This document shows, piece after piece, positions 11,789-58,508 of a stretch of 64,000 nucleotides of DNA (within the stretch, counting starts at the first letter, position 1; the number at the start of each line of letters is the position of its first letter). Source of the stretch: Euryarchaeota archaeon UBA202. GTDB lineage: Archaea; Thermoplasmatota; E2; UBA202. The translations under genes were made by a program, and so were the position numbers. Where the stretch lies: the NCBI GenBank assembly GCA_002502685.1, contig DAQA01000013.1, positions 2,202-66,201 of the forward strand, read 5' to 3'. Below the pieces are notes generated by a model. It made no database searches and was not told the DNA's origin. It saw nothing but the letters and a program-made list of their open reading frames with translations.

Positions 11789-12664
11789 TTATCCCGACCT
11801 ATGTCCATAAAACTTTACAGCATTACTATGTAATGGTATACCCATATCCTCTGCAATGCTTTGACACTTGACCCGTAAAAAATAGACGATGGGTCGATAA
11901 TTGGTTTCTGAAAAAGCCTCATAATTTGCCATGCCTTTACAAATCAGAAGGGTAGATGACTCTAATTTTTTAATCATCATAGGAGAGAGAATATCAAAAT
12001 CCACTCCAACAGCAAAACCTGGGGTGGTTAATATTTCATCTGCAATTCTACCCAGGCCTGCAAATTGTGCATCCTCAAATGTAGCATCTGTAAGAATGGG
12101 AACACCCTTAACAACAACGGTCAGATGGATATCATATTTTTTTAATTCTTTACATAACAGAGCATCAAAAACTATCTCCCCACAATTATCGGTAAAGAGG
12201 ACAATATTTCCTCTAAGAAGACCCCTGATGCAATCAAGATCGCTATACCCTAATCCCTGGTGAAATGACTCTTCAAAAAAGTGTTCCAGGTCTTGCGGGG
12301 ACGAGGCACTTCCCTCGATACCGAAATCTATGGTGTTTCCAATAATAGAGCAAAGAACCGCTGCCTGCAGAGGATCATTGCTTTCCAGTATGCGTTCTTG
12401 AGCCCGGGGAAGAAGGCTCTTGGCCACCTGGTTGCTTTTTTTCTTCAATTCATGATAGGGATCTAGTGACCCCATGGCTTGATATGCGGTGTGATGAACC
12501 CTTGTTGCAACCTGTGCAGAACTAAGGTTGTCGTACTCCTTCAGTATAATCTTCATGGATTGCAACAATACCCTTCTTTGTACATCCTTATCACTATTAA
12601 CCAGCCCAGTCTCAAACAAGACTCTGTTTAAAAGACAGGGGGCACATCGAGGTTTCATTTTCAT
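11789..12664 (-). CDS. DUF89 / ARMT1-like damage-control phosphatase family protein
   Basis: N-terminal MKPRCAPCLLNRV (the C-x-x-C start typical of archaeal DUF89), 291 aa. It is a paralog of 30458..31321. Confidence 0.75.
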   Translation of the reverse strand: MKMKPRCAPCLLNRVLFETGLVNSDKDVQRRVLLQSMKIILKEYDNLSSAQVATRVHHTAYQAMGSLDPYHELKKKSNQVAKSLLPRAQERILESNDPLQAAVLCSIIGNTIDFGIEGSASSPQDLEHFFEESFHQGLGYSDLDCIRGLLRGNIVLFTDNCGEIVFDALLCKELKKYDIHLTVVVKGVPILTDATFEDAQFAGLGRIADEILTTPGFAVGVDFDILSPMMIKKLESSTLLICKGMANYEAFSETNYRPIVYFLRVKCQSIAEDMGIPLHSNAVKFYGHRSG

Positions 12665-25739: not shown

Positions 25740-26108
25740 TTAGGTTATGGAATAATCCTCAATAATCTTTTCGGAAGACTCCAGAGAGATGAGATTATTT
25801 TTTTCTAGATCATATAAAAATTGTACCAGTCTTTCCTCAAGGTTTTCTTCACCAAAATTATTTTTTATAGACGTAAGGATGTTCTCTACGGAATGATGGC
25901 CATCACAGTATTTCCACACAAATGATCCAAGATGATCAAGATGGAGCAAAATATGGGGATCACGGCGAAGTAGCCGGCAGAATAGTTTCCCAATTGTTCC
26001 CTGAAATTTAGGGACCTTGATGCGGACATGATCTTCCTGACTAAACCATTCTGCTTGCCGGAGAGGAAGAGATGTTTTCTTAATGGAATATAATTTATGC
26101 TTGGGCAT
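25740..26108 (-). CDS. PqqD-family (RRE-like peptide-binding) protein
   Basis: LDHLGSFVWKYCDGHHSVENILTSIKNNFG...RLVQFLYDLEKNNLISL fits the PqqD pattern (LD..G..iW...DG..tv.eI...l...). ATG 26108 overlaps the OPT stop by 14 nt. Confidence 0.5.
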   Translation of the reverse strand: MPKHKLYSIKKTSLPLRQAEWFSQEDHVRIKVPKFQGTIGKLFCRLLRRDPHILLHLDHLGSFVWKYCDGHHSVENILTSIKNNFGEENLEERLVQFLYDLEKNNLISLESSEKIIEDYSIT

Positions 26109-28110
26109 TCCCTTTTCCTTGGGCCTTGGTAAACTCCCGGAGAACAAGATACCCAATCAAAAAGGCAATATAACACCACACTAAAAGACCAGGCCATGAG
26201 GGTGCCACATTGAAAACCTTGAGATCTATACTTCCAATGATAAGAAATGCGGCAATAACACCCATTAATGCCTCTCCTGCAATCAATCCCGCGGTAAACA
26301 AAATTCCTGTTCTTCGCGCCTTTTCCTTGGGATTCACTCCTTTTTGTTTAACCGCCATTTCCCAGTCACCAATTTCTTCTTCATCACTTTGGGGTGACCT
26401 TTTATCAATTATTCTATCAACGACTGCCCGGACACCACCCCCTACAAAAATGGGGATGGTAAGAGAAAAGGGAAGATAGGTACCGATGGCAACCGGGAGA
26501 ACAGGAAGATCCATAAGGATAAGTATGATGGCAAGAACAGCACCAGCAATCACATATGGCCAAATCATTTCACCTCCGAGGACACCACGGACTACACCAG
26601 CCATAAGAAATGCCTGCGGGGCAGGAAGATTGGGGCTTCCAATGGTATAGGCCGAATGTAGAGAGGCAACCACAAGGCCTAATATGGGAGCGGCAGCAAT
26701 GACTCCAACCATCTCGGCAACCTGCATTTTCCACGGTGTGGCACCAATCATATGACCCGAGGACATGGATTGGAGAACATCTCCTGAAATAGCAGCGGCG
26801 CAACACACAACAGCTGCCATTCCAATTACAATGGCCATACCGCCAGCACCAGTGATACCGAAGGCCAATAAAATGAGACTGACAAAGAGAAGAACAGAAA
26901 CAGTGACCCCGGAGATGGGGTTATTAGATGACCCAAGAAGACCCGCCATATAACCTGCTATTGCTGATGCTACAAAGGCTACCAATAAGAGAAGAGCAGC
27001 CATAAATGCAGATAGAGCTACAAGATCAGAAATCCAGGTATATAAAAGAAACATGGGTATCACCATGAGGGCAATGGCCAAAAAAACTTTTTTGTAGGCA
27101 AGATCTTGATTTGTTCTCTTTTTTGACCCTGTATCTCCCCCCCGGATACCCGTGACTGCTTCCTTGATACCACTGACTAAATTATTTCTTAAACTCCAAA
27201 TAGTCCACAGTCCTCCCACGACCATGGCGCCTACACCGATATATCTTACCTGATCACCCCAGATAGTATAAAACCCGCCCAGAAGGGGACCAAGGTTGGC
27301 ATATTGCCCTATAGGTTCAGGTAATCCACTGGCGAGGATAATCAGGGGTGTAATAATCACCCAGCTGATCAGGCCTCCACACAGAACAAAAGATGCAATA
27401 CGGGGACCAATGATATATCCAACACCCAAGAGGGCTGGAGATGAGGCCACCCCGCCATAGAGATATCCTTTACTGGTTTTCCCCAAGATGGTGTATTTTC
27501 CTATGGAGATAATATCTTCGGTAACACCCCGGAAAAGATTAAGGGAAACCTGGCAAAATTTTACCAGAGCGGCCAACAGGGCACCCACCGGCATCCATAT
27601 ACTTTGGCCACCACCTTTATTTGTTTTCTTTTCTCCTCCTTCTCCTACGGTTGTTGTTAATACCGCTGCGACGGCAATACCTTCCGGGAAAGGAAGATCA
27701 GTTTGGACAATTAATGCTCTGCGCAGTGGAACCATCCAGAGTACCCCTAAAATTCCGCCAATTAAGGCAATAACGGTTGTTTCCAGATAATGAATGTCTT
27801 CCCATACCCCTAGAACAACAAGAGCAGGGATGGTAAAGATAATTCCGGCTGCCAGGGCTTCACCGGCTGCTGTTCCCATCATTCCCAGGTTGACTTCAAG
27901 GATGGTTCCTTTAAAGGGTTTAAGTATTGCAAGGGACATGATCGCCCCTGGTATGGCAGCAGAAACCGTCATACCCGCATAAAGACCAAGATACGCATTG
28001 GCGGATCCCATCACTATGGCAAGGAGCATGCCCACGAGAATTGCTTTTAATGTTAATTCGGGGATGATACGCTCTGAGGGTATAAATGACTGAAAATCTT
28101 CCCGGGACAT
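26095..28110 (-). CDS. OPT-family oligopeptide transporter
   Basis: 671 aa polytopic membrane protein. N-terminal ELTLKAILVGMLLAIVMGSANAYLGLYAGMTVSAAIP matches the prokaryotic OPT signature. GGAGG RBS before the ATG. Confidence 0.8.
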   Translation of the reverse strand: MSREDFQSFIPSERIIPELTLKAILVGMLLAIVMGSANAYLGLYAGMTVSAAIPGAIMSLAILKPFKGTILEVNLGMMGTAAGEALAAGIIFTIPALVVLGVWEDIHYLETTVIALIGGILGVLWMVPLRRALIVQTDLPFPEGIAVAAVLTTTVGEGGEKKTNKGGGQSIWMPVGALLAALVKFCQVSLNLFRGVTEDIISIGKYTILGKTSKGYLYGGVASSPALLGVGYIIGPRIASFVLCGGLISWVIITPLIILASGLPEPIGQYANLGPLLGGFYTIWGDQVRYIGVGAMVVGGLWTIWSLRNNLVSGIKEAVTGIRGGDTGSKKRTNQDLAYKKVFLAIALMVIPMFLLYTWISDLVALSAFMAALLLLVAFVASAIAGYMAGLLGSSNNPISGVTVSVLLFVSLILLAFGITGAGGMAIVIGMAAVVCCAAAISGDVLQSMSSGHMIGATPWKMQVAEMVGVIAAAPILGLVVASLHSAYTIGSPNLPAPQAFLMAGVVRGVLGGEMIWPYVIAGAVLAIILILMDLPVLPVAIGTYLPFSLTIPIFVGGGVRAVVDRIIDKRSPQSDEEEIGDWEMAVKQKGVNPKEKARRTGILFTAGLIAGEALMGVIAAFLIIGSIDLKVFNVAPSWPGLLVWCYIAFLIGYLVLREFTKAQGKGNAQA

Positions 28111-28764: not shown

Positions 28765-29628
28765 TCAGTTAAACAATTTTCCCGTTATTTTCGTCCACAT
28801 CTTACTGATTCTCTCAGCGATCTCTCCCTTTGAGAATTCTATAATAGTCTTTTCATCTACCATGGCGTCAGTTACAACACTATCATATGGTAGCTTTCCT
28901 ACAATCTCGATATTCTTTTTGTTACAGTAGCTCTCAATTTTTTTTGTATTTTCGGTATTGATGTCATATTTATTAATGCACACAACAGCACGAAGATGAA
29001 AATAGTGTGCCACACCCAGGATTCGGTCAAAATCATGTATGGCAGAAAGTGTTGGCTCGGTAACAATCAACACGAGATCAACACCAGTTAATGAGGATAT
29101 CACAGGACAGCCAATACCCGGAGGCCCATCAATAATTATCAGTTCTTTCTTTTTTTCCTGGGCAATCATTTTTGCATTATTTCTTACCACCGTGACTAGT
29201 TTTCCGGATGCCTCCTCGGCAGTGTTTAACCTGGCGTGAGCCATTGGTCCAAATCGTGTCTCAGAAATATAGGCGATACCTGATTCCCGTTCAACCATTG
29301 TGATGGCATCAACAGGGCATACATAGGCACAAACACCGCATCCCTCGCAAGCTTCCGTAATGAGGTTGATGTCTTCATCAATGGCATCAAAATTACACAA
29401 TTCATAACATTTTTTACAACCTATACAGCGGTCCTTGTTAATGTGGGCGATCTTTAATCCATGAAATATTGTCGACTCTAAGACCCGAGGTTTGAGAATT
29501 AGATGCAGATCTGCAGCGTCAACATCGCAATCAGCAAGAACAGCATTGTTTGCAAGAGATGCAAACGCAGCTGTGATCGAGGTTTTTCCTGTTCCCCCTT
29601 TCCCACTGATTACAGTTACTTGTTTCAT
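28765..29628 (-). CDS. MinD/ParA-superfamily P-loop ATPase with inserted 2x[4Fe-4S] ferredoxin domain (COG1149-like)
   Basis: VISGKGGTGKTS P-loop. CIGCKKCYELC and CEGCGVCAYVCP cluster motifs. ATG 29628 overlaps the upstream stop (ATGA). Confidence 0.8.
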   Translation of the reverse strand: MKQVTVISGKGGTGKTSITAAFASLANNAVLADCDVDAADLHLILKPRVLESTIFHGLKIAHINKDRCIGCKKCYELCNFDAIDEDINLITEACEGCGVCAYVCPVDAITMVERESGIAYISETRFGPMAHARLNTAEEASGKLVTVVRNNAKMIAQEKKKELIIIDGPPGIGCPVISSLTGVDLVLIVTEPTLSAIHDFDRILGVAHYFHLRAVVCINKYDINTENTKKIESYCNKKNIEIVGKLPYDSVVTDAMVDEKTIIEFSKGEIAERISKMWTKITGKLFN

Positions 29629-30461
29629 TTCTTTACCTCTGCTTGTATTTTGTTGAAAAGATCGCAAAACCGTTGTCTCCATTCAGGTAACTCAGTCACA
29701 AAGGGGATGCCATTGGAATAGAGATTTGCAATTTTTTCACTATGGGGTATTTTCATTAAAATAGGTATTTTTTCTTTCTGGCAGTAATCCTCAACTTTTC
29801 TATATCCAATACCGTCTCGATTAATAATAACTCCAAACGGTATTTTTAGATACCTGATCACCTCCACGGCTAGTTTAAGATCATGCAGGCCAAAGGGTGT
29901 GGGCTCAGTTACCAGTATACAATAATCTGAACCATTAACCGCTTCAATAACGGGGCAAGACGTACCGGGAGGCGCATCAAGAATGACCCGCTTATCTCTC
30001 GTTATTCTTCGTTTCAAGGCTTTAATTACAGGGATAGCTTGAATTTCGCCCACATTTAATAATCCATGGTAAAAATCAAGTCCATCTGCCATACCATGTT
30101 CAATCAATCCTACAACTCGTTTATCCCAGCTAATAGCATTCCATGGGCACACAAGTTTACATCCTCCACATGAATGGCATAATTCGGGAAAAACAAGAAT
30201 ATCGGTGGGTACAACAGCCAAGGCATTATACATACAGAACTCAGAACATTTTCCACAAAAATCACAAAGAGTCTTATCGATTTTGGGTATATCCACGGAG
30301 ATTTCTTTCCGTTCATGTATAGGTGCATTAAGAAAAATATTTGCATTTGGTTCTTCCACATCACAATCGATAAGCTGTACCCCCTCAAGACTTAATGCAA
30401 GGTTCGTGGCAACTGTTGTTTTTCCTGTTCCCCCCTTCCCGCTGGCAATGGAAATAATCAT
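29625..30461 (-). CDS. MinD/ParA-superfamily P-loop ATPase with inserted 2x[4Fe-4S] ferredoxin domain (COG1149-like), paralog
   Basis: SIASGKGGTGKTT P-loop. CDFCGKCSEFC and CHSCGGCKLVCP. 4-nt overlap with the upstream DUF89 gene. Confidence 0.8.
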   Translation of the reverse strand: MIISIASGKGGTGKTTVATNLALSLEGVQLIDCDVEEPNANIFLNAPIHERKEISVDIPKIDKTLCDFCGKCSEFCMYNALAVVPTDILVFPELCHSCGGCKLVCPWNAISWDKRVVGLIEHGMADGLDFYHGLLNVGEIQAIPVIKALKRRITRDKRVILDAPPGTSCPVIEAVNGSDYCILVTEPTPFGLHDLKLAVEVIRYLKIPFGVIINRDGIGYRKVEDYCQKEKIPILMKIPHSEKIANLYSNGIPFVTELPEWRQRFCDLFNKIQAEVKK

Positions 30462-31321
30462 TTTTGTACCCTGAAAATAAGATCACCTACTTTAGCATCC
30501 ATATCTTGAGCCACCAACGGACATTTTACCAACAGCAAGAAAAAAATCTCTCGTTTCACATTATTTAATGATTCATAATTCCCCTGGCCCTTTGCAATAA
30601 CTAGATCATCATGGTTAAAATGCTCTAAAAACTCCTTGGATACAGTTGTTAGTAGTATACCGGGTGATGATTCAGTATGGCCAGCATCTGCAGAAATAAC
30701 TTTTGCCAAGCTGTCAATCCCTGCTTTTTTTGCATCGGTAATGGTTGCATCATTGAGTATGGGGTTTGCCTTTACCACATAGGTTATCTCTTTATTTCTT
30801 GGTGCAAACTCTTCTAGGAGTAATTTATCAAAGAATATTTCGCCTGCATTGTCAGCAAGGTAAAGAATAGTCTTGGCGTCATTTAGCACTTTTTTAAATC
30901 GTGGATATGCCGTATTTATGATTCTTTTTTTTAGGGAGTCATTAATCATGGTGTTAACATTAAATCTCATCACAGAACCAAAATCTATGGCATTTCCAAC
31001 AATGGCGAGTTTAATGGCGGTAAGAAGAGAATCGTTTGACGTGCGAATCATCTCTTTAAGCTGGGGATACAACTTCTCTGCCATGATATTTGATTGTTTC
31101 TTTACATTCTTGTAGGGATCATGACATTTGGTTATCTTGCGTACAATTGCATGCACCTTTTTTGATGCTACCGGCGGCGGATTGTCAAATGAGAGTGTTT
31201 GAAGATATCTTAAAACTTCTTTCATCACTTGGGTATGCACGGCTTCATCCATCGTTACCATACGTGTCGCCTCTAGCGACTGTCTGATAAAACAAGGTAT
31301 GCAATCAAGGTATGTTTTCAT
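30458..31321 (-). CDS. DUF89 / ARMT1-like damage-control phosphatase family protein
   Basis: MKTYLDCIPCFIRQSLEA start and 287 aa. Collinear similarity to 11789..12664 (for example ...GNAIDFG..., ...ICKGMANYE / IAKGQGNYE...). Confidence 0.75.
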   Translation of the reverse strand: MKTYLDCIPCFIRQSLEATRMVTMDEAVHTQVMKEVLRYLQTLSFDNPPPVASKKVHAIVRKITKCHDPYKNVKKQSNIMAEKLYPQLKEMIRTSNDSLLTAIKLAIVGNAIDFGSVMRFNVNTMINDSLKKRIINTAYPRFKKVLNDAKTILYLADNAGEIFFDKLLLEEFAPRNKEITYVVKANPILNDATITDAKKAGIDSLAKVISADAGHTESSPGILLTTVSKEFLEHFNHDDLVIAKGQGNYESLNNVKREIFFLLLVKCPLVAQDMDAKVGDLIFRVQK

Positions 31322-31354
31322 TTCATATATTTTTTTGACTTATTTATCCATTGA

Positions 31355-31729
31355 TTAATGATGACGATCTCTGAATTCATGTTTGCCACATGCACTATTT
31401 AGAGTTGCTTTTTGAAGCGTACCCTGTTGAAACATGGTTATTGCATCACGCACTGTTCCAGAAGCTCCAATATAAACCTCGATACCTAAATTTTCAAACA
31501 AACTGATGGCGCGTCTTCCTAATCCTTGGCAGATCATCGCATTCACTCCTTCTTTTGCCATAATTTCGGGCGGGTCTCCCTGTCCTCCCATATGATGGCT
31601 CGTATTGGGAATGACCGTTACATCATCGGTTTCAAGATCAACAATAGTATAGGTAGGAACTCTTCCAAAATGTTCACCTACGCTATCATCTAAACCCTGT
31701 TGATCTATTGTAGGTATACATACTTTCAT
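31355..31729 (-). CDS. NifX/NifB-C-terminal-type (dinitrogenase FeMo-cofactor-binding fold) protein
   Basis: MKVCIPT....VGEHFGRVPTYTIVDLE...VNAMICQGLGRRAISLFENLGIEVY is the typical Nitro_FeMo-Co family pattern. 124 aa. Confidence 0.8.
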   Translation of the reverse strand: MKVCIPTIDQQGLDDSVGEHFGRVPTYTIVDLETDDVTVIPNTSHHMGGQGDPPEIMAKEGVNAMICQGLGRRAISLFENLGIEVYIGASGTVRDAITMFQQGTLQKATLNSACGKHEFRDRHH

Positions 31730-32124
31730 TGACGTTTCCCTCCGTTTACTGCTTTTTTGTCATCTCTTCCAAAGTGACTATCCACCGTGGCACTCTCAGT
31801 TTTTTTAAGATTATCAGCTTTATATTGTTCAACAGCATCTTTTACCCTACCGCTTACGCCAGTAATCACTTCTATATTTGCTGCTTTCAATGTTTGAAAA
31901 GCATTTGGTCCAATATTTCCCGTAATTATACACTTGGCTTTTTGTTGTGCTACCCTTTGGGCAGCTTGGATTCCTGCCCCCCCCATTGCCAAGGCACTCT
32001 CATTTGATATTGCTTCTACATTCATGTCATCCGTATTGATAAACAAAAAATAGGCGCATCTTCCAAATCGAGGATCTATTTGTGCATCCAGATTTTTTCC
32101 TGTTGATGTTATACATATTTTCAT
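31726..32124 (-). CDS. NifX/NifB-C-terminal-type cofactor-binding-fold protein, paralog
   Basis: MKICITSTGKNLDAQIDPRFGRCAYFLFINTDD...IITGNIGPNAFQTLKAANIEV. A GGTGA RBS precedes ATG 32124. The longer track ORF start (32205) is not supported. Confidence 0.8.
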   Translation of the reverse strand: MKICITSTGKNLDAQIDPRFGRCAYFLFINTDDMNVEAISNESALAMGGAGIQAAQRVAQQKAKCIITGNIGPNAFQTLKAANIEVITGVSGRVKDAVEQYKADNLKKTESATVDSHFGRDDKKAVNGGKRQ

Positions 32125-32168
32125 TTCATTCACCTTTGTTATGTTCCCCCACTTTTTTTTTATTTTTT

Positions 32169-32360
32169 TTATGCTCTTGTCATGGGTGCTCCGCATTTGG
32201 GACATTTTCTGTTATAGCATGGCTCACTAAGTCTATGAGGCTCTTTATGTCCACAGTTGGAACACAGGCATTCGCCACCAGGACCCATACCTACTCCCCC
32301 GCCCATGCCTCCTCTTCTTCCTCTGCCTCCGCCTAATCCTTTACTTCTTTCCTGCATCAT
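32169..32360 (-). CDS. Small Gly/Arg-rich protein with C-terminal zinc ribbon
   Basis: ..SKGLGGGRGRRGGMGGGVGMGPGGECLCSNCGHKEPH....CPKCGAPMTRA. Possible starts are GTG 32369 (overlaps the Mrp stop), ATG 32360 and ATG 32357. Confidence 0.55.
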   Translation of the reverse strand: MMQERSKGLGGGRGRRGGMGGGVGMGPGGECLCSNCGHKEPHRLSEPCYNRKCPKCGAPMTRA

Positions 32361-32365
32361 ATATT

Positions 32366-33184
32366 TCACTTCCCTTTTTTATTCACGTTTTTTTCAATCT
32401 TTTCCACTATTTTGGTAAATGCATTCGCTGCATCTGATGTAGCATTCTTTATAATAAATGGTTCACCCGAGTCACCTGTATCTACAATTTTTGGGTCGAG
32501 AGGGACTTTTCCTAGGTACGGCACCTGAAGATCCCTAGATGCCTTCAGCCCGCCACCGCTTTTAAAGATATCAACAGACTTGCCACAATGGGGGCAGGTA
32601 AACCCACTCATATTTTCAATAATCCCCAGAACAGGGATATTCATCTTCTTGACAAAATTGATAGATTTACGGACACTTACCAATGCCACATCTTGCGGAG
32701 TTGTTACTATTATTGCCCCATCGCACTGGGGAATAAGCTGTGCAACGGTTAATGGCTCATCGCCTGTACCTGGAGGGAGATCAACAATTAGATAATCAAT
32801 AGCACCCCAGTTTACATCACCAATAAATTGTTTCATTGCCCCCATCTTCAAGGGGCCACGCCAAATAACAGGTGCATCTCTTTCTGATAATAGAAAGCCT
32901 ATCGACATGACCGTCAAATTCGGGGACACGACAATAGGATTAAAACCCTTCTCGGAAGCCGTGATTTTTTTATCTTCCAGACCTAGTATTTTGGGGATAC
33001 TTGGTCCGTGAAAATCACTGTCTAACAGTCCAACCTTATTCCCTTTTTCAGAGAGTGCAAATGCAAGGTTGGCAGACACTGTACTTTTTCCAACGCCTCC
33101 CTTTCCACTTAATACCATAATCGTATGCTTTATATGGCTCAGGGTTTGAGTAATTTTAGTGTTGTCATATTCTTTTTTTTCCAT
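32366..33184 (-). CDS. Mrp/NBP35/ApbC-family Fe-S cluster carrier ATPase
   Basis: VLSGKGGVGKSTVSANLA deviant Walker A, CPHCG cluster-ligand motif, VDLPPGTGD. 272 aa. Confidence 0.85.
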   Translation of the reverse strand: MEKKEYDNTKITQTLSHIKHTIMVLSGKGGVGKSTVSANLAFALSEKGNKVGLLDSDFHGPSIPKILGLEDKKITASEKGFNPIVVSPNLTVMSIGFLLSERDAPVIWRGPLKMGAMKQFIGDVNWGAIDYLIVDLPPGTGDEPLTVAQLIPQCDGAIIVTTPQDVALVSVRKSINFVKKMNIPVLGIIENMSGFTCPHCGKSVDIFKSGGGLKASRDLQVPYLGKVPLDPKIVDTGDSGEPFIIKNATSDAANAFTKIVEKIEKNVNKKGK

Positions 33185-33263
33185 AGTTACCTCTCATGGC
33201 ATTATGGCATGGCTTCAGCTATATATTTGTTATTCTATTAAAAAATTGGGGGGAAAAGAAAAA

Positions 33264-33293
33264 GAGCTTGTTTATAGGTGTGTTAACAAGCTC
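33264..33293 (-). terminator. Hairpin + T-tract after the DUF5320 gene
   Basis: Perfect 9-bp stem GAGCTTGTT/AACAAGCTC (33264-33272 / 33285-33293). On the minus strand it is followed by TTTTTCTTTT. It lies 5 nt after the stop at 33298. An AT-rich TATA-like stretch follows before the Mrp start. Confidence 0.5.
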
Positions 33294-33297
33294 CTTT

Positions 33298-33651
33298 TTA
33301 CTTTTCTTTGGAGAGTTCTTGGAGTCTGTCTTGTACAGCTTTGACCTCGTTTTCTAGGTCCTTGACCATATTTTTTAGGTAGGTTTTCTCATCCTCTTCA
33401 CTAGGCTCTGGATATATTCCGGGGTAATATGGTGCAGGGTCATAGGATGGATACATACTTCTCCACCAGAATCCTCTGCCACGTCCTAAACCTCTGCCCC
33501 ATCCTCTGCCAAATCCGCGTCCAAAACCAAATCCTCTTCCTCGGGGGAATCCTTTGGTATAACCGGGGTTATTATATCCTGCACAGTATCCAAGGGCTCT
33601 CCCTGTCATGGATCCACGACCTTCGGGTCCTGTTCTATCTCCACCTGGCAT
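33298..33651 (-). CDS. DUF5320-family protein (disordered RG/FG-rich N-terminal part, C-terminal coiled coil)
   Basis: MPGGDRTGPEGRGSMTGRALGYCAG start typical of DUF5320, then GFPRGRGFGFGRGFGRGWGRGLGRGRGFWW. C-terminal ..YLKNMVKDLENEVKAVQDRLQELSKEK. Confidence 0.7.
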   Translation of the reverse strand: MPGGDRTGPEGRGSMTGRALGYCAGYNNPGYTKGFPRGRGFGFGRGFGRGWGRGLGRGRGFWWRSMYPSYDPAPYYPGIYPEPSEEDEKTYLKNMVKDLENEVKAVQDRLQELSKEK

Positions 33652-33655
33652 ATTC

Positions 33656-33928
33656 TTATTTCACCTCTTTACTTTCTTTTTTTATTTCTTCAATTCTTTT
33701 TTCTATTTTGTCTAGGTCACTTTTAATGAACTGTTTTTCCCGTTCTAGAATATGGAGCTCGTCCTCGGGATGTATCCTGGGATAAGGCATGAATTCCATT
33801 GGCGGATAGTCCATTGGTGGGTATCCAAATGGTGCCCATCCGGGTATTTTGGGTGCGTGATAGCGGTACCACTGTCTGTATCCTGCATTTTTTTTCGTCT
33901 CTGATTTACTGTTTTTATTAGTCATCAT
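33656..33928 (-). CDS. DUF5320-related small protein (Pro/aromatic-rich N-terminal part, C-terminal coiled coil)
   Basis: WAPFGYPPMDYPPMEFMPYPR, then EDELHILEREKQFIKSDLDKIEKRIEEIKKE. It has the same two-part layout as the next gene and sits 4 nt upstream of it. Confidence 0.5.
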   Translation of the reverse strand: MMTNKNSKSETKKNAGYRQWYRYHAPKIPGWAPFGYPPMDYPPMEFMPYPRIHPEDELHILEREKQFIKSDLDKIEKRIEEIKKESKEVK

Positions 33929-34003
33929 TTTTATTACGTATATATTATTATCTATATAAAGTTTTTTGTTAAATTTTTAATAATTAATCGCATATATATC
34001 ATT

Positions 34004-34315
34004 ATGCCGAGATATCGACGTGGTAGGGGCAGGTGTCCCAGGTGGGTGGCAAGATTACCCTATGCGGATTTTTTTAAACCTGCGGGTATTCCCTTGATGA
34101 ATCTTGAGATCACAACTTTGTTGATGGAGGAGTTTGAGGCTCTCCGTTTGGTGGACTCGGAGGGCTTGGAGCAGAGTGAGGCGGCGCGTCGTATGGGTGT
34201 GTCAACAAAGACGTTTTGGAATGACTTGAAATCGGCACGGAAAAAAATAGCTGATGCGTTGGCATATGGGCAAGGAATACAAATTCAAGGAGGGAGTTAT
34301 AGGATCCAAGAATGA
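34004..34315 (+). CDS. DUF134/UPF0251-family putative HTH regulator
   Basis: RGRGRCPRWVARLPYADFFKPAGIP...EEFEALRLVDSEGLEQSEAARRMGVSTKTFWNDLKSARKKIADAL matches the UPF0251 pattern with a sigma-70 region-4-like HTH. Divergent from the cluster. Confidence 0.8.
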   Translation: MPRYRRGRGRCPRWVARLPYADFFKPAGIPLMNLEITTLLMEEFEALRLVDSEGLEQSEAARRMGVSTKTFWNDLKSARKKIADALAYGQGIQIQGGSYRIQE

Positions 34316-34567: not shown

Positions 34568-34906
34568 CTAATTTTTTATGTCTTTTTTTATGCTTTGGAT
34601 ATTCCTCTGTGATATAACCACCATTGCTACCCAGACAAATAGGATGGCGATAGTCATGGTTACGCCAATTGTTGCCATCTCTTGTAACATAACAGGGATT
34701 TCTGCAGGATTCTGCATGGCGGTCAAGAATGGTGGATAAAGCACAACTTCTTGATGTGCTATATGTTCAACAGCAAGCATTATGACGCCTCCCCACAACA
34801 TCACGTTTAACCATACGATTTTCAATCTTTCAGGTATTTTTTTCCTGAATAGTGTTGTTACGATCGCAAGACTCATTGGAGCTATAAAGCATGCCATTTT
34901 ATTCAC
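34568..34906 (-). CDS. Small 3-TM membrane protein (paralog pair, member 2)
   Basis: LNVMLWGGVIMLAVEHIAH resembles LSLMLWGTSIMIMVDHVLG of the upstream gene. 8-nt overlap with it. Confidence 0.45.
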   Translation of the reverse strand: MNKMACFIAPMSLAIVTTLFRKKIPERLKIVWLNVMLWGGVIMLAVEHIAHQEVVLYPPFLTAMQNPAEIPVMLQEMATIGVTMTIAILFVWVAMVVISQRNIQSIKKDIKN

Positions 34907-35192
34907 CTCTTACAATTTTTTCTTTTGGACGAGAAATTATCAAGATAATCTCCCAGATTATTAAAATCGGTATGATCATGGCAATTCCTAAAAGTGTTCC
35001 ATTGGTTATTAGTCCATCGGTTTGTACCTCAAGGAATTCTCCACCGTCATAGCCGAGAACATGATCCACCATGATCATAATTGAAGTTCCCCAAAGCATC
35101 AAACTTAAAAAATCCAGTTTATAGATCTTGGGTTTTATATACCAAATGGCAGTCACCGCGATTGCTGCGATTACTGTTGTTACAAGCCACAT
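34899..35192 (-). CDS. Small 3-TM membrane protein (paralog pair, member 1)
   Basis: 97 aa with the same topology and shared motif as 34568..34906. Confidence 0.45.
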   Translation of the reverse strand: MWLVTTVIAAIAVTAIWYIKPKIYKLDFLSLMLWGTSIMIMVDHVLGYDGGEFLEVQTDGLITNGTLLGIAMIIPILIIWEIILIISRPKEKIVRGE

Positions 35193-49155: not shown

Positions 49156-49617
49156 ATGATGACCGTTGTGGAAACAATAACCAGATTAAAATTTTATCCC
49201 CATAGATGCACAGGGTGCAGAGAATGTGAACGGGCATGCTCACAGGTGCATTTCAAAACAAAGGAAGGGGGAGACAAATCAGCTCTCCGGATCAAGGAAA
49301 AAAAAGGAATTTATAGTATCCATGTGTGCGACCAGCGGGGTTTATGCTTGGACATGTGCCCGGTGGGGGCATTAACCCGGCGAAAGAATGGTGCTGTCTG
49401 GCTTGACAAGAAAACCTGTATTGGATGTCAAGCATGTGTCGGATTCTGCCCCATTGGAGCCATGAAAAAAGCCAAGGAGAGAATCGAGCCCTTCAAATGT
49501 ATCTCGTGTGGATCCTGTGTCCGTGCATGTCCTGAAGAAGCCCTGGAGCTCATCACGGTACCCCTTGAGGAAAAAAAAGAGATAGTGTATCATGAATTGG
49601 GAGCCAAAAACAAATGA
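49156..49617 (+). CDS. Four-cluster [4Fe-4S] ferredoxin-like electron-transfer subunit (AorA-like)
   Basis: Four Cys motifs: CTGCRECERAC, CDQRGLCLDMCP, CIGCQACVGFCP, CISCGSCVRACP. The stop overlaps the AOR start (ATGA 49614-49617). Confidence 0.8.
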   Translation: MMTVVETITRLKFYPHRCTGCRECERACSQVHFKTKEGGDKSALRIKEKKGIYSIHVCDQRGLCLDMCPVGALTRRKNGAVWLDKKTCIGCQACVGFCPIGAMKKAKERIEPFKCISCGSCVRACPEEALELITVPLEEKKEIVYHELGAKNK

Positions 49618-51938
49618 CAGAAGGACAAATACCGATAAAGGAATATAAAACAGGAAATACCCAGCATACCTGGGATCTAAAAAAATTAAGGGAGACCCAT
49701 AAAATCCTCCATAAATATACCTATCAAAAAAATGAGGTGAAAAGAGGATATACAAATAAAACACTTCAGATTGATATCTCCACCAATACAATACAGGAAA
49801 AACCAGTTACAAAAGAAATGAAGGAGTTATTCACAGGTGGACGTGGATTTGGCCTAAGACTCCTCTGGGATGCCCTCACACCCGCTACACGATGGGACAG
49901 CGAGGACAATGAGATTGTGATCACCACTGGCCCCCTCTGCGGCATTACCCAATATCCCGGATGTGGGAAATCAGTCTGCTTGACTGTCTCTCCCTCCACC
50001 AACATTATCTGTGACAGCAATGTCGGGGGGTTCTTCGGCCCCTATCTTAAATTTGCCGGTTTTGATGCCCTGGAGATACGGGGAAAAGCAAAGGAAGATA
50101 TTGTGATTGTCATCGATGCTGAAAAGGAAGAAATAACCCTAGAAACTGCCCCACTGGAGGAAACCAATGCCCATCTTCTCAACGAACAACTCACCTCTCT
50201 TTATGCAACCGAGGACACGGATAAAGCCCGACAGAAGGTCTCTGTAGTCTCAGCTGGGCAGGGAGCGGAACATAGCTTTTGGGGTTGTTTGAATTTTTCT
50301 TTTTATGACATCAGAAGAAAAGTACCCCGGATCAAACAAGCAGGAAGAGGAGGACTGGGGACCGTATTGAGGAATAAAAGAATTAAGGCAGTAGTGGTAA
50401 AAATTGATAAGTTAGATGGACTATCAAATAATCCCAAGGACCCCCACACACTTGCTCAAGTAGGAATTAAAATACATCGAGAAATCCGAGACCTTGACCG
50501 ATATCAATGCAATATGCGGGCTGTGGGAACAGTCCATCTAGTTGAAATCATGGACGCCTATGATCTCTTACCCTGTGAGAATTACCGGTTTGGAAGTTTC
50601 CCAAAAGCACCCCGGATTCACTCCCCTGAGTTTTACAAACGGTTTACCAAAATCATCCCGGATGGCTGCTGGCACGGTTGCACCCTGGCATGCGCAAAAA
50701 CCGTTGATGGTTTCACCGTAAAAACAGGACCCTATGAAGGCCAAAGGGTTACCGTTGATGGCCCTGAGTATGAGACCGTTGGCTGCGGAGCAAACATGGG
50801 ATTGTGGGACCCGGACTGGATTCTTGAATTTAACTTCTATTGCGACACCTATGGCATGGACACCATCTCCACCGGAACCGCTATAGCTTTCTATATGGAA
50901 ATGTATGAATATGGCATCCTGAACAAGGAACGATGTGATGGTTTAGAGCTTTGTTTTGGAAATGCAGAGGCAGTCATGGAGTTTCTTCATCGTATCGCCC
51001 AAGGAGATTCCGGTGAATTTTTATCCATTGCACCTCGGGGTATACGGCGGGTAAAAGACTGGTTGATTGCAAAAGGCTGGGGTGACCCCCAGCTGATTGA
51101 AGATACCGGTATGGAAAGCAAGGGACTTGAATTCTCAGAATATGTCACCAAGGAATCACTTGCAATGCAAGGAGGATATGGTCTTACCCTCAAGGGACCT
51201 CAACACGATGAAGCATGGCTTATCTTTATGGATATGGTGGACAACGCCATACCAAGCTTTAAGGATAAAGCTGAGGCGTTACATTACTTTCCCATGTGGC
51301 GCACCTGGTTTGGCCTTCATGGCCTATGCAAGTTACCCTGGAATGATATTGAACCGGCTAATAACGTAGAGACAGATGAACCACCTAAGGTTCCTGAGCA
51401 TGTACAAAATTATGTGGAGCTCTTTAATGCCGTTACGGGAAAAAATATTGATAAGGATGACTTAATCCTGCAAAGTGAGCGGTGCTATAATTGGCAGAGA
51501 GCCATGAATGTGTGGATGAGGCGGGGAAGACGACGGGATGATTGGATACCCTATCGCTCCATGGGACCTGTGACTGAAATGGAGTATATATCTCGGAAGG
51601 ACCGGTATGACCAGCAACTTGTTGAAAAATTGGGTCTTACTGAGGAATATGTTGCTGGTTTGACGATAAATAAGAAAATCCAGTTGTTGTATAATTATCG
51701 ACAGGAACAGTATCAAAAATTAGCTGATGCGGTATATTATCGCCGCGGATGGACACCAAATGGTGTCCCAACCATTCAGAAGATGAAAAAGCTAGGGTTT
51801 TCGGACAAAAAGATGTTGAGGATGCTTGAAGAAAAGATAAAAGAGGATGAAAAAGCAGGGTTGAATGTATGGGGTGGAACGTACACCGAGGGTGAACAAC
51901 CCCCTAGTACTGACTTAAACTATTGGTTAAAGTGGTAA
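49614..51938 (+). CDS. Aldehyde:ferredoxin oxidoreductase (AOR) family tungsto/molybdopterin enzyme, long form
   Basis: AOR N-terminal domain (YTNKTLQIDIST...FTGGRGFGLRLLWD), GPEYETVGCGANMG pterin-site block and a Cys cluster DGCWHGCTLAC. 774 aa. Confidence 0.8.
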   Translation: MTEGQIPIKEYKTGNTQHTWDLKKLRETHKILHKYTYQKNEVKRGYTNKTLQIDISTNTIQEKPVTKEMKELFTGGRGFGLRLLWDALTPATRWDSEDNEIVITTGPLCGITQYPGCGKSVCLTVSPSTNIICDSNVGGFFGPYLKFAGFDALEIRGKAKEDIVIVIDAEKEEITLETAPLEETNAHLLNEQLTSLYATEDTDKARQKVSVVSAGQGAEHSFWGCLNFSFYDIRRKVPRIKQAGRGGLGTVLRNKRIKAVVVKIDKLDGLSNNPKDPHTLAQVGIKIHREIRDLDRYQCNMRAVGTVHLVEIMDAYDLLPCENYRFGSFPKAPRIHSPEFYKRFTKIIPDGCWHGCTLACAKTVDGFTVKTGPYEGQRVTVDGPEYETVGCGANMGLWDPDWILEFNFYCDTYGMDTISTGTAIAFYMEMYEYGILNKERCDGLELCFGNAEAVMEFLHRIAQGDSGEFLSIAPRGIRRVKDWLIAKGWGDPQLIEDTGMESKGLEFSEYVTKESLAMQGGYGLTLKGPQHDEAWLIFMDMVDNAIPSFKDKAEALHYFPMWRTWFGLHGLCKLPWNDIEPANNVETDEPPKVPEHVQNYVELFNAVTGKNIDKDDLILQSERCYNWQRAMNVWMRRGRRRDDWIPYRSMGPVTEMEYISRKDRYDQQLVEKLGLTEEYVAGLTINKKIQLLYNYRQEQYQKLADAVYYRRGWTPNGVPTIQKMKKLGFSDKKMLRMLEEKIKEDEKAGLNVWGGTYTEGEQPPSTDLNYWLKW

Positions 51939-54185: not shown

Positions 54186-54584
54186 TCATTTATTTTTCTT
54201 TTTTTGTTGGTAATCCTTTATTGCCTCGTGAAGGGCACCTGCTGCCAGATTGGAACAATGCATTTTTTGAGGAGGAAGACCATCAAGTTCACTGGCAACA
54301 TCATTGCGTGTAATCTTTAACGCTTCATCCACATGAAGATCCTTTGCCATTTCAGTCACCATGCTACTGGTTGCAATGGCTGAGCCACAACCAAATGTTT
54401 TAAATTTAATATCAGTGATGTGATCATCCTTAACTGAAATATACATCTCCATGATGTCACCACAGACAGGATTACCCACTTTCCCGTATCCATCAGGATT
54501 TTTTATTTCCCCCACGTTTCGGGGATTGAAAAAATGATCCATTACTTTTTTGCTATAACCAATATTTTGTGCCATACATATCAC
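54186..54584 (-). CDS. iscU: IscU/NifU-like Fe-S cluster scaffold
   Basis: NPRNVGE...GNPVCGDIM...FKTFGCGSAIATSS...MHCSNLA (three scaffold Cys). Confidence 0.85.
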   Translation of the reverse strand: MICMAQNIGYSKKVMDHFFNPRNVGEIKNPDGYGKVGNPVCGDIMEMYISVKDDHITDIKFKTFGCGSAIATSSMVTEMAKDLHVDEALKITRNDVASELDGLPPQKMHCSNLAAGALHEAIKDYQQKKKNK

Positions 54585-55747
54585 TTCTTTTTTTTATAGA
54601 GAGGAGAGAGATCCCTCAATTTTTCCACTGTGTTTGTTACCGCGGTGATAACATGAGGCACTTCCTTGGATGTATTTGATCGCCCAAGGGTGAGAACCAT
54701 TGATCCATGGGCTTCCTCATGTTTTAATCCAATAGCCAAGAGGACATGGGAGGGCTCAAGGGTTCGGGATGAGCATGCTGACCCTGTTGCCACCTGGATG
54801 TTATACATATCAAGAGATAAAAGTATGCTTTCACCCTCGATGTAGCTAAAACGAAAACTGGCATGATGAGGAAGACGCAGCGTGGGATGCCCTGTCAGAA
54901 AAGAGTCATCTATCTTGAGTATGCCATCTATGAGGCTGTCCCGGATATTTTGAAAACGAGGTGTCTCTTTGGCCCTCTCCTTTTTTGCGATCCGTGCAGC
55001 CTCTCCCATCCCTACCAGGGCAAAAATATTTTCACTCCCTGACCTAAGTCCTCTTTCCTGTCCTCCTCCAGGGAGAATTGATTGCAGCTTAATGCCAGGT
55101 TTTACATAGAGAACACCAGCACCAAGAGGGCCATATAGCGCGGATGAGGAAAGAGTTAAAAGATCAATGTTATCTTTTTGAACATCAAGGGGAACATATC
55201 CCCCTGCCGCGACGGCATCGACATGGAGATACAGTCCTTTTTCATGAACAAGTGAACTAATTTCTTTGATGGGCTCAATGGTTCCAATTTCATTATTGGC
55301 ATACATTATAGAAGTGATAAGGGTTTCTTTGGTGACAATGTCCTCTAGTTGTTCAAGGTCAACAAGACCCTGTGAATCAACAGGTATCAATGAAAATCTA
55401 AAACCATTTTTTTGAAGATATTTCATTGGATTGAGCACAGAGATATGTTCTATGGCACTTGCTGCCACCTGTTTTCCCTTGCCAGTATTGCGAAGGGAAC
55501 ATCCCTGAATCGCTAAATTGTTTGACTCTGTGGAACCCCCTGTAAAAATGATTGTGGATTCATTTTCTGCATTAATGAAACCAGCGATTTTTTCCCGGGA
55601 TTCCTCCATTGCTTTTTTTGCTTGAAGGCCTAATGAATGAAGGGATGAAGGATTTCCCACCATGTCCTCTAGATACCACCGGGAAAAATCAAGAACCCGG
55701 GAGTCGATGGGTGTCGCAGAGGCATAATCAAGATAGATGCGTTTCAT
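54581..55747 (-). CDS. iscS: Cysteine desulfurase (IscS/NifS class)
   Basis: IYLDYASATP start, PLP and active-site regions (..HVDAVAA.., SSALYGP, ATGSACSS). ATG 55747 has AGGAGA 8 nt upstream. The track GTG 55777 would overlap the upstream gene. Confidence 0.85.
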   Translation of the reverse strand: MKRIYLDYASATPIDSRVLDFSRWYLEDMVGNPSSLHSLGLQAKKAMEESREKIAGFINAENESTIIFTGGSTESNNLAIQGCSLRNTGKGKQVAASAIEHISVLNPMKYLQKNGFRFSLIPVDSQGLVDLEQLEDIVTKETLITSIMYANNEIGTIEPIKEISSLVHEKGLYLHVDAVAAGGYVPLDVQKDNIDLLTLSSSALYGPLGAGVLYVKPGIKLQSILPGGGQERGLRSGSENIFALVGMGEAARIAKKERAKETPRFQNIRDSLIDGILKIDDSFLTGHPTLRLPHHASFRFSYIEGESILLSLDMYNIQVATGSACSSRTLEPSHVLLAIGLKHEEAHGSMVLTLGRSNTSKEVPHVITAVTNTVEKLRDLSPLYKKKK

Positions 55748-55767
55748 ATTAACTGTCTCCTTTGTCT

Positions 55768-56139
55768 CTAAAACCACATGGTTGCATCAGCGTCAAGGGC
55801 AAGATCATTCAGAGTCCCAGCACCGACAATTTTTACCCCGGGTAAAAGCTGCACCTTTCCAATACCAAGCATCTGTTTGGATGCCTCACAGGCATAAATC
55901 TCAATATTCATCTCTTGTGTCTTTTTAATCATTTCCAATACCGTGGGAAAATTTCCAATTTTAATGTTTTCAGCTGTATTGGGCATCAAGATGTTCAATC
56001 CTCGCCCCAGGTAATAAACACGGGGGATAATATCCATCATTTGTGCTGTTTGCGCTAAAACCAGAGGGGAATATTGCCTGTCGGGTTGATCACTTGTCTG
56101 AACGTATAAAATTGATTTTGTTTGTCTCACTTTCTTCAT
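55768..56139 (-). CDS. DsrE/DsrF-like sulfur-relay family protein
   Basis: 123 aa. ILYVQTSDQPDR..SPLVLAQTA...IEIYACEASKQMLGI..VKIVGAGT fits the DsrE-like fold family. It sits next to the TusA-like and IscS genes. Confidence 0.55.
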   Translation of the reverse strand: MKKVRQTKSILYVQTSDQPDRQYSPLVLAQTAQMMDIIPRVYYLGRGLNILMPNTAENIKIGNFPTVLEMIKKTQEMNIEIYACEASKQMLGIGKVQLLPGVKIVGAGTLNDLALDADATMWF

Positions 56140-56152
56140 ATTCCTGTTTTTC

Positions 56153-56401
56153 TTAATGTATTTTTTTAATATAAAAGATTAATGCATTCCCCTTTTTTTC
56201 AAATTTTATAAGCTGATGACCGGTCCGTTTCACCCACCGTGCAATATCCTCCTCAGCTGCTGGATCATCCGCCTCAACCCTGAGAACCTGTCCTTGTTGA
56301 AGATTCTCCATTGCCTCCTTGGTTAATGCAATGGGCATGGGACAATAGAGCCCTACACAATCAACCTCTGCATCATACCGGTGAGTGTTGCTGATGGATA
56401 T
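56153..56401 (-). CDS. TusA/SirA-like sulfurtransferase (probable non-canonical start upstream of the first ATG)
   Basis: The frame is open from 56419. It encodes ..YDAEVDCVGLYCPMPIALTKEAMENL..GQVLRVEADDPAAEEDIARWVKRTGHQLI. The conserved Cys-Pro-x-Pro lies upstream of the only ATG (56338). AGGGGGA precedes ATA 56401 and ATC 56395. Confidence 0.6.
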   Translation of the reverse strand: MSISNTHRYDAEVDCVGLYCPMPIALTKEAMENLQQGQVLRVEADDPAAEEDIARWVKRTGHQLIKFEKKGNALIFYIKKIH

Positions 56402-56429
56402 CGTCCCCCTATGATAATTTCATTATTTA

Positions 56430-57005: not shown

Positions 57006-57188
57006 GTTGTATCTCTTATATACTGGCTTTTTTCACTTTTTTTTAATCTTGGTTGAAACAATACATGTTATAAAGGGGTAATCATGCATCAATTTCTCCA
57101 ATATTTTTTTGGGATTTCCATGTAGTAAGAACCTTCTATCCCTGTTCATTCTCTTGGCAAAGTTTTAGACAGTACCGGGACAAAATAG

Positions 57189-57704: not shown

Positions 57705-57706
57705 AA

Positions 57707-58099: not shown

Positions 58100-58122
58100 C
58101 AGTACCTCCATTCAAAAGCCGT

Positions 58123-58332: not shown

Positions 58333-58508
58333 TTTATCATACCTCAAAAAAATGTAATATAGAGATATATATATAGATTTTGGATTCACTTAACCCGGTT
58401 TAAAAAGTATAAATTGAGTGAAGACCAAGCATCTAGACTTCTCTTGAAAATACCCAGTGTGCCTAGGAAGTAATTAATGTATTTGTAAGTCCCAATTTAG
58501 CAGTAAAA

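Follow-up and report, generated by a model that had tools for sequence, protein, structure and literature searches.

Iron and sulfur acquisition, buffering and distribution in strict anaerobes are poorly understood, and the orange protein (ORP) complex of these organisms has stood without an assigned role since 2011. In Desulfovibrio vulgaris the complex comprises two MinD-like proteins with two [4Fe-4S] motifs each (Orp3 and Orp4), the orange protein itself (Orp8) and MrpORP (Orp9); the Desulfovibrio proteins have been isolated as a physical complex, MrpORP passes Fe-S clusters to Orp3, Orp4 and Orp8 in vitro, and the orange protein has been isolated with a non-covalently bound Mo-Cu-S cluster (PMC6345978). 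The orp operons are the sole targets of OrpR, a redox-sensing Fe-S regulator confined to the Deltaproteobacteria, and an archaeal origin of ORP has already been proposed (PMC8359166). A further NifX-like protein, IssA of Pyrococcus furiosus, joins a NifX-like domain to a 70-residue tail that is proposed to wrap anionic thioferrate electrostatically (PMC5524996). Here we analyze a ten-gene cluster at positions 28765-34315 of a 64,000-nucleotide stretch of contig DAQA01000013.1 (hereafter, the window) from the uncultured archaeon UBA202 (assembly GCA_002502685.1), whose closest relatives are Thermoplasmata metagenome-assembled genomes (MAGs). The cluster is very probably an archaeal form of the ORP system of anaerobes. 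A preliminary description of the sequence had held that this neighborhood has no experimentally defined role, a view superseded by the experimental history of the orp system of D. vulgaris, which constitutes the core of the cluster. That core was already known; what is new here is the recognition of DUF5320, a Cys6 mini-protein and DUF134 as ORP partners, together with their domain fusions. Within a widespread family the window copy is unexceptional, and its value lies in the family-level picture of conserved components, fusions, a link to IssA and a candidate operator.

The cluster and the orange protein system

Ten open reading frames (ORFs) are confirmed at 28765-34315, nine in tandem on the minus strand (33928 down to 28765) and one diverging on the plus strand (34004-34315), and the same ten genes were called independently on two public metagenome contigs carrying an identical locus. 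Families were assigned through profile searches against Pfam and NCBIfam, and the calls of the preliminary description for DUF5320, Mrp/NBP35, the two Nitro_FeMo-Co proteins, DUF89, the two CbiA/MinD proteins with Fer4 domains and DUF134 all pass Pfam, nine of the ten family assignments clearing their HMM thresholds overall; the operon-like organization that it reported also holds. The features are, from the regulator downward (coordinates, strand, feature and evidence):

34004..34315, plus: DUF134/UPF0251 helix-turn-helix (HTH) protein, 103 residues (Pfam DUF134, 85 bits; Sigma70_r4_2 HTH)
33929..34003, no strand: putative divergent promoter spacer, 75 nt, 12% GC (sequence reading)
33656..33928, minus: truncated DUF5320 paralogue, 90 residues (Pfam, 21 bits, sub-threshold; hhalign)
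33298..33651, minus: DUF5320 protein, 117 residues (Pfam, 96 bits)
33255..33294, minus: hairpin (33264-33294) followed by T-runs (RNA folding)
32366..33184, minus: Mrp/NBP35-type Fe-S carrier ATPase of the MrpORP clade, 272 residues (ParA/NUBPL, 344 bits; NCBIfam MrpORP, 389 bits)
32169..32360, minus: Gly/Arg-rich Cys6 mini-protein, 63 residues (own alignment; no Pfam family)
31726..32124, minus: NifX-like protein A, orange-protein (Orp8) type, 132 residues (Nitro_FeMo-Co, 88 bits; 2WFB)
31355..31729, minus: NifX-like protein B, TM1816/PH0822 type, 124 residues (Nitro_FeMo-Co, 74 bits; PDB matches)
30458..31321, minus: DUF89/ARMT1 metal-dependent phosphatase, subfamily I, 287 residues (Pfam, 220 bits; motifs; PDB matches)
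29625..30461, minus: MinD-family ATPase A with inserted 2x[4Fe-4S] ferredoxin domain, Orp3/Orp4 type, 278 residues (CbiA and Fer4)
28765..29628, minus: MinD-family ATPase B with inserted 2x[4Fe-4S] ferredoxin domain, 287 residues (CbiA and Fer4; paralogue of A)

The core shared with the Desulfovibrio orp genes consists of the pair of MinD-type 2x[4Fe-4S] ATPases, two NifX-like proteins and an Mrp protein of the MrpORP clade. The paired ATPases, corresponding to Orp3 and Orp4, are adjacent and coupled by an ATGA overlap, and the best solved relative of NifX-like protein A is 2WFB, the 'putative uncharacterized protein ORP' of D. gigas (E = 8e-18, 101 residues). The best NCBIfam model for the Mrp protein is MrpORP (389 bits, model positions 1-255 of 365, vs. 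252 bits for ApbC); the protein has a GKGGVGKS Walker A motif and a CPHC motif at residue 197, and its score lies under the MrpORP cut-off of 450 bits because it lacks the NifX-like Di-Nase domain that is fused C-terminally to the P-loop domain in MrpORP. A full MrpORP above the curated cut-off (519 vs. 450 bits) is encoded in a planctomycete cluster found through its DUF5320 gene (locus L066). The window encodes no sigma-54 activator with an Fe-S PAS domain of the OrpR kind, and the place of the regulator is taken by the DUF134 gene. To our knowledge, archaea lack sigma-54. A sigma-54 activator with PAS domains was confirmed in locus L046, where it can be likened to OrpR because it combines the same domain classes (PAS, sigma-54 AAA+ and HTH), and its protein cluster spans seven bacterial loci.

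Like the system of D. vulgaris Hildenborough (Orp3, Orp4, Orp5, Orp8, Orp9/MrpORP and OrpR), the archaeal cluster is restricted to anaerobes and adjoins a dedicated regulator gene. Whereas Desulfovibrio has two divergent operons controlled by a sigma-54 activator with an Fe-S PAS domain, the window has a single unidirectional operon and a divergent gene for a small DUF134 HTH protein; it encodes Mrp and the NifX-like domain as separate genes, the NifX-like ones downstream, and adds DUF5320, a truncated DUF5320 paralogue, the Cys6 Gly/Arg mini-protein and DUF89.

The two MinD-ferredoxin proteins, which are 30% identical, each carry two CxxCxxCxxxC motifs and a GKGGTGKT deviant Walker A motif; their searches against solved structures returned separate MinD and ferredoxin-domain matches only. 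Across 70 MinD-ferredoxin sequences, the eight ferredoxin Cys are invariant, as is an extra Cys (Cys169 in protein A) located seven residues past the Walker B Asp in a DxPPGxxCP motif, and two further Cys are 84% conserved. Switch II lies at the dimer interface, where NTPases of the NifH, CooC and HypB type hold metal or cluster ligands. Because the extra invariant Cys sits in the switch II region, the alignment argues, by analogy, for a probable metallochaperone or reductase role of the pair rather than a positioning role. A deviant Walker A, nucleotide-dependent delivery of a metal center and a dimer-interface Cys (the CxxC of Mrp, the switch II Cys of the MinD-ferredoxin pair) are common ground with Mrp/NBP35/ApbC and with SIMIBI metallochaperones such as CooC, HypB and UreG, although the latter three lack the 2x[4Fe-4S] inserts. 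The maturation of FeMo-cofactor by NifX, NafY and the NifB C-terminal domain together with NifH and NifEN offers a similar combination, in which NifX-fold proteins carry non-covalent inorganic clusters and a SIMIBI-class Fe-S ATPase dimer supplies electrons or drives insertion, but the cluster contains no nitrogenase, NifB, NifEN or NifH genes, and the window ATPases belong to the MinD/CbiA family with a ferredoxin insert, not to the NifH family.

The second NifX-like protein matches PDB entries 1T3V/1O13 (4e-17) and 2YX6 (2e-16) and ends in a Cys/His-rich C-terminus, ACGKHEFRDRHH. The DUF89 protein belongs to subfamily I (220 bits), with the metal-binding motifs DNAGE (residue 157) and KGQGNYE (residue 244) and an N-terminal CIPC; the archaeal structures 2FFJ and 2G8L match it with E-values near 1e-41. 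Outside any ORP-type cluster, the minus strand at 11789-12664 encodes another DUF89/ARMT1 paralogue (291 residues, Pfam 200 bits), and the cluster-borne gene is therefore one of two copies in the organism.

Conserved partners and domain fusions

About 160 related loci were compared overall. A first scan with the DUF5320 profile (alignment A1) over one genome per GTDB species yielded 80 loci, in which the window proteins were searched against six-frame ORFs, and a reciprocal scan of metagenome contigs with the MinD-ferredoxin profile (A4) yielded 36 contigs of at least 8 kb that were counted. Counts from the first scan are minimum values, because many contigs are short. They are given below as loci with the family within 6 kb of DUF5320, followed by contigs anchored on MinD-ferredoxin:

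NifX: 55 of 80 loci; 31 of 36 contigs
MinD-ferredoxin: 46 of 80 loci; 36 of 36 contigs, always as an adjacent pair
Mini-protein: 35 of 80 loci; 17 of 36 contigs
Mrp: 32 of 80 loci; 19 of 36 contigs
DUF5320: anchor of the 80 loci; 14 of 36 contigs
DUF134: 29 of 80 loci; 11 of 36 contigs
DUF89: 13 of 80 loci; 6 of 36 contigs

The density of partner families within 6 kb of DUF5320 is 6 to 40 times (or more) that of the outer flanks in the 80 loci, and a hand count finds the mini-protein or DUF5320 in 23 of the 36 MinD-ferredoxin contigs. The genes are thus co-conserved elsewhere, as the preliminary description had predicted, and the two Gly/Arg-rich mini-proteins and the DUF134 regulator are regular parts of the cluster, DUF89 being an accessory member found in a minority of clusters. 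The nearest DUF5320-anchored loci belong to Thermoplasmata MAGs (48-58% identity), and others to lineages that include Asgard archaea, Methanosarcinales, Woesearchaeota, Atribacterota, Planctomycetota, Spirochaetota, Bipolaricaulota, Clostridia and Bacteroidales. The order in the Thermoplasmata is DUF134, DUF5320, Mrp, mini-protein, NifX-A, NifX-B, (DUF89), MinD-ferredoxin A and MinD-ferredoxin B, with DUF134 co-directional in the relatives and inverted in the window; in other lineages the gene order is shuffled. DUF5320, the Cys6 mini-protein and DUF134 travel with the ORP core across many archaeal and bacterial phyla, and the comparison identifies the Desulfovibrio cluster as a derived version of a far more widespread system, to which these three families belong.

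None of the genes flanking the cluster in the window (an OPT transporter, POR, AOR and small membrane proteins) is co-conserved with it in the 80 loci. The conserved block is therefore exactly 28765-34315, a client enzyme or transporter among the window neighbors is rejected, and the earlier suggestion that the cluster serves the nearby POR, AOR and polyferredoxin genes finds no backing in the comparison. No partner family was found in 13 of the 80 loci; one lone DUF5320 gene, with no other cluster family within 10 kb, was observed in the cultured Asgard archaeon Promethearchaeum syntrophicum MK-D1 (L070, 3537574-3557915), so that DUF5320 can also occur apart from the cluster. Two further proteins that are absent from the window recur within 8 kb of DUF5320 (L003-L082): 18 loci have a metallo-beta-lactamase-fold protein (about 240 residues) and 15 a radical SAM protein (about 315 residues). 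The latter was considered as a possible NifB and rejected, having only weak MoaA/W-maturase-like matches, and the single example scanned, from L066, has an ArsR-like C-terminal HTH.

The window DUF5320 protein (33298-33651) matches PF17253 over its entire length (96 bits, model positions 1-99 of 99). The family has an invariant N-terminal MPGGDRTGP...GRxxGYC, RG/FG/W repeats, a Pro/Tyr-rich segment and a C-terminal amphipathic helix (A1); AlphaFold2 predicts residues 1-84 to be disordered and a helix at 85-115 (pLDDT, the predicted per-residue confidence, about 90). The mini-protein has no Pfam or NCBIfam family. It combines a disordered cationic N-terminal half with a C-terminal ribbon, GPGGxCxCxxCGxxxxHxxxxPCxxxxCPxCGxxMxR, in which six Cys and one His are invariant (alignment A2), and its family counts 2050 representatives (E <= 1e-3) in a set of 1.84 billion proteins. 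AlphaFold2 predicts a small beta ribbon at residues 30-63 (pLDDT 80-89), for which Foldseek gave no significant match, the resemblance being a generic one to rubredoxin and Zn-ribbons. Many members of the mini-protein family start with MPGGDGTGP, the same motif as DUF5320. We found nothing functional in the literature on DUF5320 and DUF134.

Several lines of evidence from domain architecture bear on these modules. The fusion of NifX to DUF5320 is a very common bacterial architecture (PF02579 and PF17253 co-occur in 120 of the 120 best matches to one such fusion), and among the best 150 mini-family representatives, 17 carry NifX domains (these include giant proteins that join PDZ to several ribbons and NifX, and one that combines rhodanese, ribbons and NifX), 8 are fused to DUF134 and 6 have a DUF5320-like segment. 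DUF134 is fused to Gly/Arg regions and Cys6 ribbons in Methanosarcinales, Woesearchaeota and others, and bears a different CxxC ribbon with a Gly/Arg tail in Atribacterota, Bacteroidales and Asgard archaea. NifX domains with plain Gly/Arg tails, an IssA-type architecture, are found in Asgard and planctomycete loci (L018 and L066). Furthermore, a CDF transporter (Cation_efflux and ZT_dimer) with a C-terminal Gly/Arg region and Cys6 ribbon (L013:458-1510, in a Methanosarcinales MAG) adjoins a DUF134-ribbon fusion and a DUF5320 gene. These fusions tie the Gly/Arg modules to metal-cluster carriers, sulfur transfer, metal transport and the DUF134 regulator. The two mini-proteins are no incidental members of the cluster, their modules being fused to NifX domains in other genomes and the mini module to DUF134 as well. 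A group of giant proteins (P0172, P0175, P0176 and P0178; 600-1430 residues) combines PDZ or rhodanese domains with 2-5 ribbon-profile stretches and 1-3 NifX-like domains, an architecture for which we found no earlier description.

Proposed metal-sulfide handling and its alternatives

The general idea of a machine for handling metal clusters with DUF134 as local regulator, advanced in the preliminary description, fits the evidence. With the identity of the system on solid ground, we infer a mechanism that is, on balance, probable: NifX carriers, polycationic partners and the Mrp and MinD-ferredoxin ATPases, under DUF134 regulation, would together handle an anionic metal-sulfide species. The NifX-like proteins would hold inorganic anionic metal-sulfide species non-covalently, like orange protein, IssA and NifX/NafY. 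The disordered cationic Gly/Arg/aromatic regions of DUF5320 and the mini-protein would act in trans, in the manner of the IssA tail, neutralizing and wrapping the anion, and the DUF5320 helix would provide oligomerization. Mrp would assemble or carry [4Fe-4S] clusters and load the two MinD-ferredoxin ATPases, which as a nucleotide-switched heterodimer might pass electrons or clusters to build up or mobilize the stored species. DUF89 would be an optional phosphatase accessory, and DUF134 would bind an operator overlapping the transcription start and sense the same ligand or metal through Gly/Arg and Cys modules.

The comparison with IssA rests on a NifX-like (IPR003731) domain working with a disordered segment rich in cationic residues, Gly, aromatics and Pro. 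The 70-residue IssA tail has 15 Gly, 7 cationic, 14 aromatic, 11 Pro and 1 Cys residues and an isoelectric point (pI) of 10.7 (PMC5524996), and residues 1-82 of the window DUF5320 have 23 Gly, 12 cationic (Arg and Lys), 16 aromatic, 9 Pro and 1 Cys, with a pI of 10.3; both are predicted to be disordered. The cationic segments of the window differ in being separate polypeptides, one with a coiled-coil-like helix and the other with a Cys6 ribbon, and IssA, unlike the NifX-like proteins of the window, is not described as part of an ATPase cluster. Iron is the most likely metal, with Mo/W as an alternative. Iron genes recur beside DUF5320 in the 80 loci, with FeoB in 8, FeoA in 7, Fur in 8 and DtxR-type repressors in 6, and two IssA-like NifX proteins of Methanococcus voltae, Mvol_0689 and Mvol_0693 (with locus tags four apart), are more abundant on pyrite (PMC8516115, PMC9431491).

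A more ambitious version of this model, which we regard as speculative, takes DUF5320 and the mini-protein to be free-standing IssA tails that join ORP-type NifX carriers, Mrp and a nucleotide-switched MinD-ferredoxin heterodimer in a widespread, ancient system of anaerobes that condenses, stores and remobilizes metal-sulfide polymers (thioferrate or thiometallates), with DUF134 sensing through the same Gly/Arg and Cys module. If true, the orange protein complex and IssA storage would be two faces of one system. The comparison in any case connects the ORP literature with that on IssA and thioferrate, and provides three families of unknown function with a concrete biochemical hypothesis.

Several observations count against metal-sulfide handling as proposed here. 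The likeness of DUF5320 to the IssA tail is compositional, and the in-trans role proposed for it is drawn from composition and architecture; the window mini-protein itself does not have the MPGGDGTGP motif; and RG/RGG-rich regions commonly bind nucleic acids. Under the definition of the IssA clade (a NifX-like domain, pI >= 9, under 5 Cys and a Gly content of 20% or more over the final 40 residues; PMC5524996 supplement), neither NifX-like protein A (pI 9.05, 3 Cys, 8% Gly) nor B (pI 5.36, 3 Cys, 10% Gly) belongs to it. Lastly, the sole reported phenotype in Desulfovibrio is a defect in cell morphology, for which the authors favor a link to cell division (PMC6345978, PMC8359166).

Among the alternatives, the handling of Mo/W thiometallates survives best, although we consider it unlikely. 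On this account the NifX carrier would bind spontaneously formed thiomolybdate or thiotungstate clusters and buffer them or pass them to pterin-cofactor synthesis, for instance for AOR. The orange protein, isolated with its Mo-Cu-S cluster (PMC6345978), is the closest solved relative of NifX-like protein A, the window includes a gene for a tungsten-type AOR (49614-51938), and cationic Gly/Arg regions would take up thiometallate anions no less readily than thioferrate. However, co-conservation extends neither to AOR nor to the other flanking genes, the recurrent neighbors of the cluster include no Mo/W transporter or pterin-cofactor gene, the transport and regulator families that do recur are Feo, Fur and DtxR-type repressors (together with a weak ArsP-type permease match), and MrpORP and Orp3/Orp4 are Fe-S proteins.

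A role in cell division or positioning, in which the MinD-like ATPases would act in septum placement or polar organization with the Fe-S and NifX-like parts as redox inputs, appears improbable. It draws on the morphological defects seen when OrpR, which targets nothing but the orp operons, is lost, on the polar location of MrpORP and on the MinD-like C-terminal amphipathic helices reported for Orp3 and Orp4 (PMC6345978, PMC8359166). An Fe-S defect could nonetheless underlie the altered morphology as a secondary effect. The approximately 116 related loci of sufficient length show no recurring cell-division gene, carriers of metal clusters, genes for iron uptake and regulators of iron make up the conserved partners, and the invariant switch II Cys and the eight ferredoxin Cys suit a metallochaperone or reductase better. 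Finally, it is very improbable that DUF5320 and the mini-protein are RGG-type RNA or DNA binders, forming a regulatory module with DUF134 and lying beside Fe-S genes only as regulators. In favor of this notion, nucleic-acid binding is a classic property of RG/RGG repeats, several lineages have the mini module joined to the DUF134 HTH, and a survey flagged Methanosarcina DUF134 and DUF5320 proteins for a G-quadruplex-binding-like motif (PMC7565180). Against it, the same modules are far more often fused to NifX, and fusions to rhodanese and to a metal-efflux transporter also occur; none of these three binds nucleic acids.

The putative DUF134 promoter region and other features of the locus

The DUF134 protein matches PF02001 at 85 bits over model positions 3-97 of 98, has a cationic N-terminus, MPRYRRGRGRCPRW, and is likely the local transcription regulator of the cluster; a search for solved relatives gave only chance matches to designed TIM barrels. 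The AT-rich divergent spacer (33929-34003; 75 nt, 12% GC) reported in the preliminary description stands, with TATA-like boxes at 33974-33983 toward DUF134 and at 33952-33961 toward the minus-strand genes, and presumably acts as a promoter in both directions. Between each TATA box and its start codon lies one of two related, operator-like elements, CGCATATATAT (33989-33999) on the DUF134 side and ACGTATATAT (33936-33945) on the side of the first minus-strand gene, and the short distances from TATA box to start suggest leaderless or very short-leader mRNAs.

In nine Thermoplasmata relatives, a TATA box is followed by a conserved element around CTCATATGAG and then by the DUF134 start (alignment A3). 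Within 1.19 Mb of loci there are five exact copies of the palindrome CTCATATGAG, every one of which precedes a DUF134 start by about 32 nt, and DUF134 is the obvious candidate to bind it. An operator overlapping the transcription start is typical of archaeal repressors. In the window, TCGCATATATAT (33988-33999) aligns at the position of CTCATATGAG in the relatives, at the same distance from the TATA box, and locus L043 likewise has TCGCATATATAT there. The window operator may thus be a degenerate copy of CTCATATGAG, a lead and not a finding: the element has one half-site of the palindrome only, in a very AT-rich spacer where partial matches come easily, which tells against the assignment. The element of the relatives is, all the same, a first candidate operator for a DUF134 regulator.

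On the minus strand, the hairpin and T-tract that had been described between the two DUF5320-type genes and the rest are confirmed (33264-33294, -16.4 kcal/mol, z = -4.5, with none of 200 shuffles folding as stably), and the hairpin is a possible attenuating terminator separating those two genes from the remaining ones. An Rfam scan of the window returned one distant tRNA only, and scans for sigma-70 promoters and bacterial terminators are uninformative for an archaeal host. The upstream gene of the two (33656-33928), described at first as DUF5320-related, scores 21 bits against a Pfam cut-off of 27; its relationship holds through hhalign (85.6% probability) for the C-terminal part only, where it aligns to columns 67-122 of the DUF5320 profile, that is, to the Pro/Tyr-rich segment and the C-terminal helix, without the Gly/Arg region. 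Its best matches are confined to the identical loci L001 and L002, with one weak match in L046 (29 bits).

Four 4-nt overlaps between start and stop codons had been proposed. Three are ATGA overlaps, at 31726-31729, where the start of NifX-like protein B overlaps the preceding stop, and at 30458-30461 and 29625-29628, on both flanks of MinD-ferredoxin A; the fourth, at 32366-32369, requires a GTG start. The likelier start of the mini-protein is the ATG at 32360, which is the choice of gene callers, follows a Shine-Dalgarno-like GAAGTGA and yields the exact 63-residue product found in public collections. NifX-like protein A most likely starts at the ATG at 32124 rather than at 32205, because the alignment to the orange protein (2WFB) begins at Met28 of the long ORF; AAGGTGA precedes this start, and the 132-residue product is on record. 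MinD-family ATPase B starts at 29628, not at 29682.

The gene for the OPT-family transporter (671 residues; 26095-28110, minus strand), which lies about 650 nt downstream of the cluster and precedes a PqqD-like gene, is not co-conserved with it. Two small hydrophobic ORFs that overlap each other (112 and 97 residues; 34568-35192, minus strand), without a Pfam family, are convergent with DUF134 and have no counterpart beside the cluster in other loci. The AOR locus (AFOR_N and AFOR_C; 49156-51938, plus strand), in which a small ferredoxin-like ORF comes first, is likewise not co-conserved with the cluster. Further along, a run of iron and oxidative-stress genes on the minus strand (54186-59693) encodes, by Pfam, IscU (NifU_N), an IscS-like cysteine desulfurase, rubrerythrin, ferritin, desulfoferrodoxin and a flavodiiron protein, so that a minimal ISC system and a ferritin stand alongside the ORP-type cluster in this organism.

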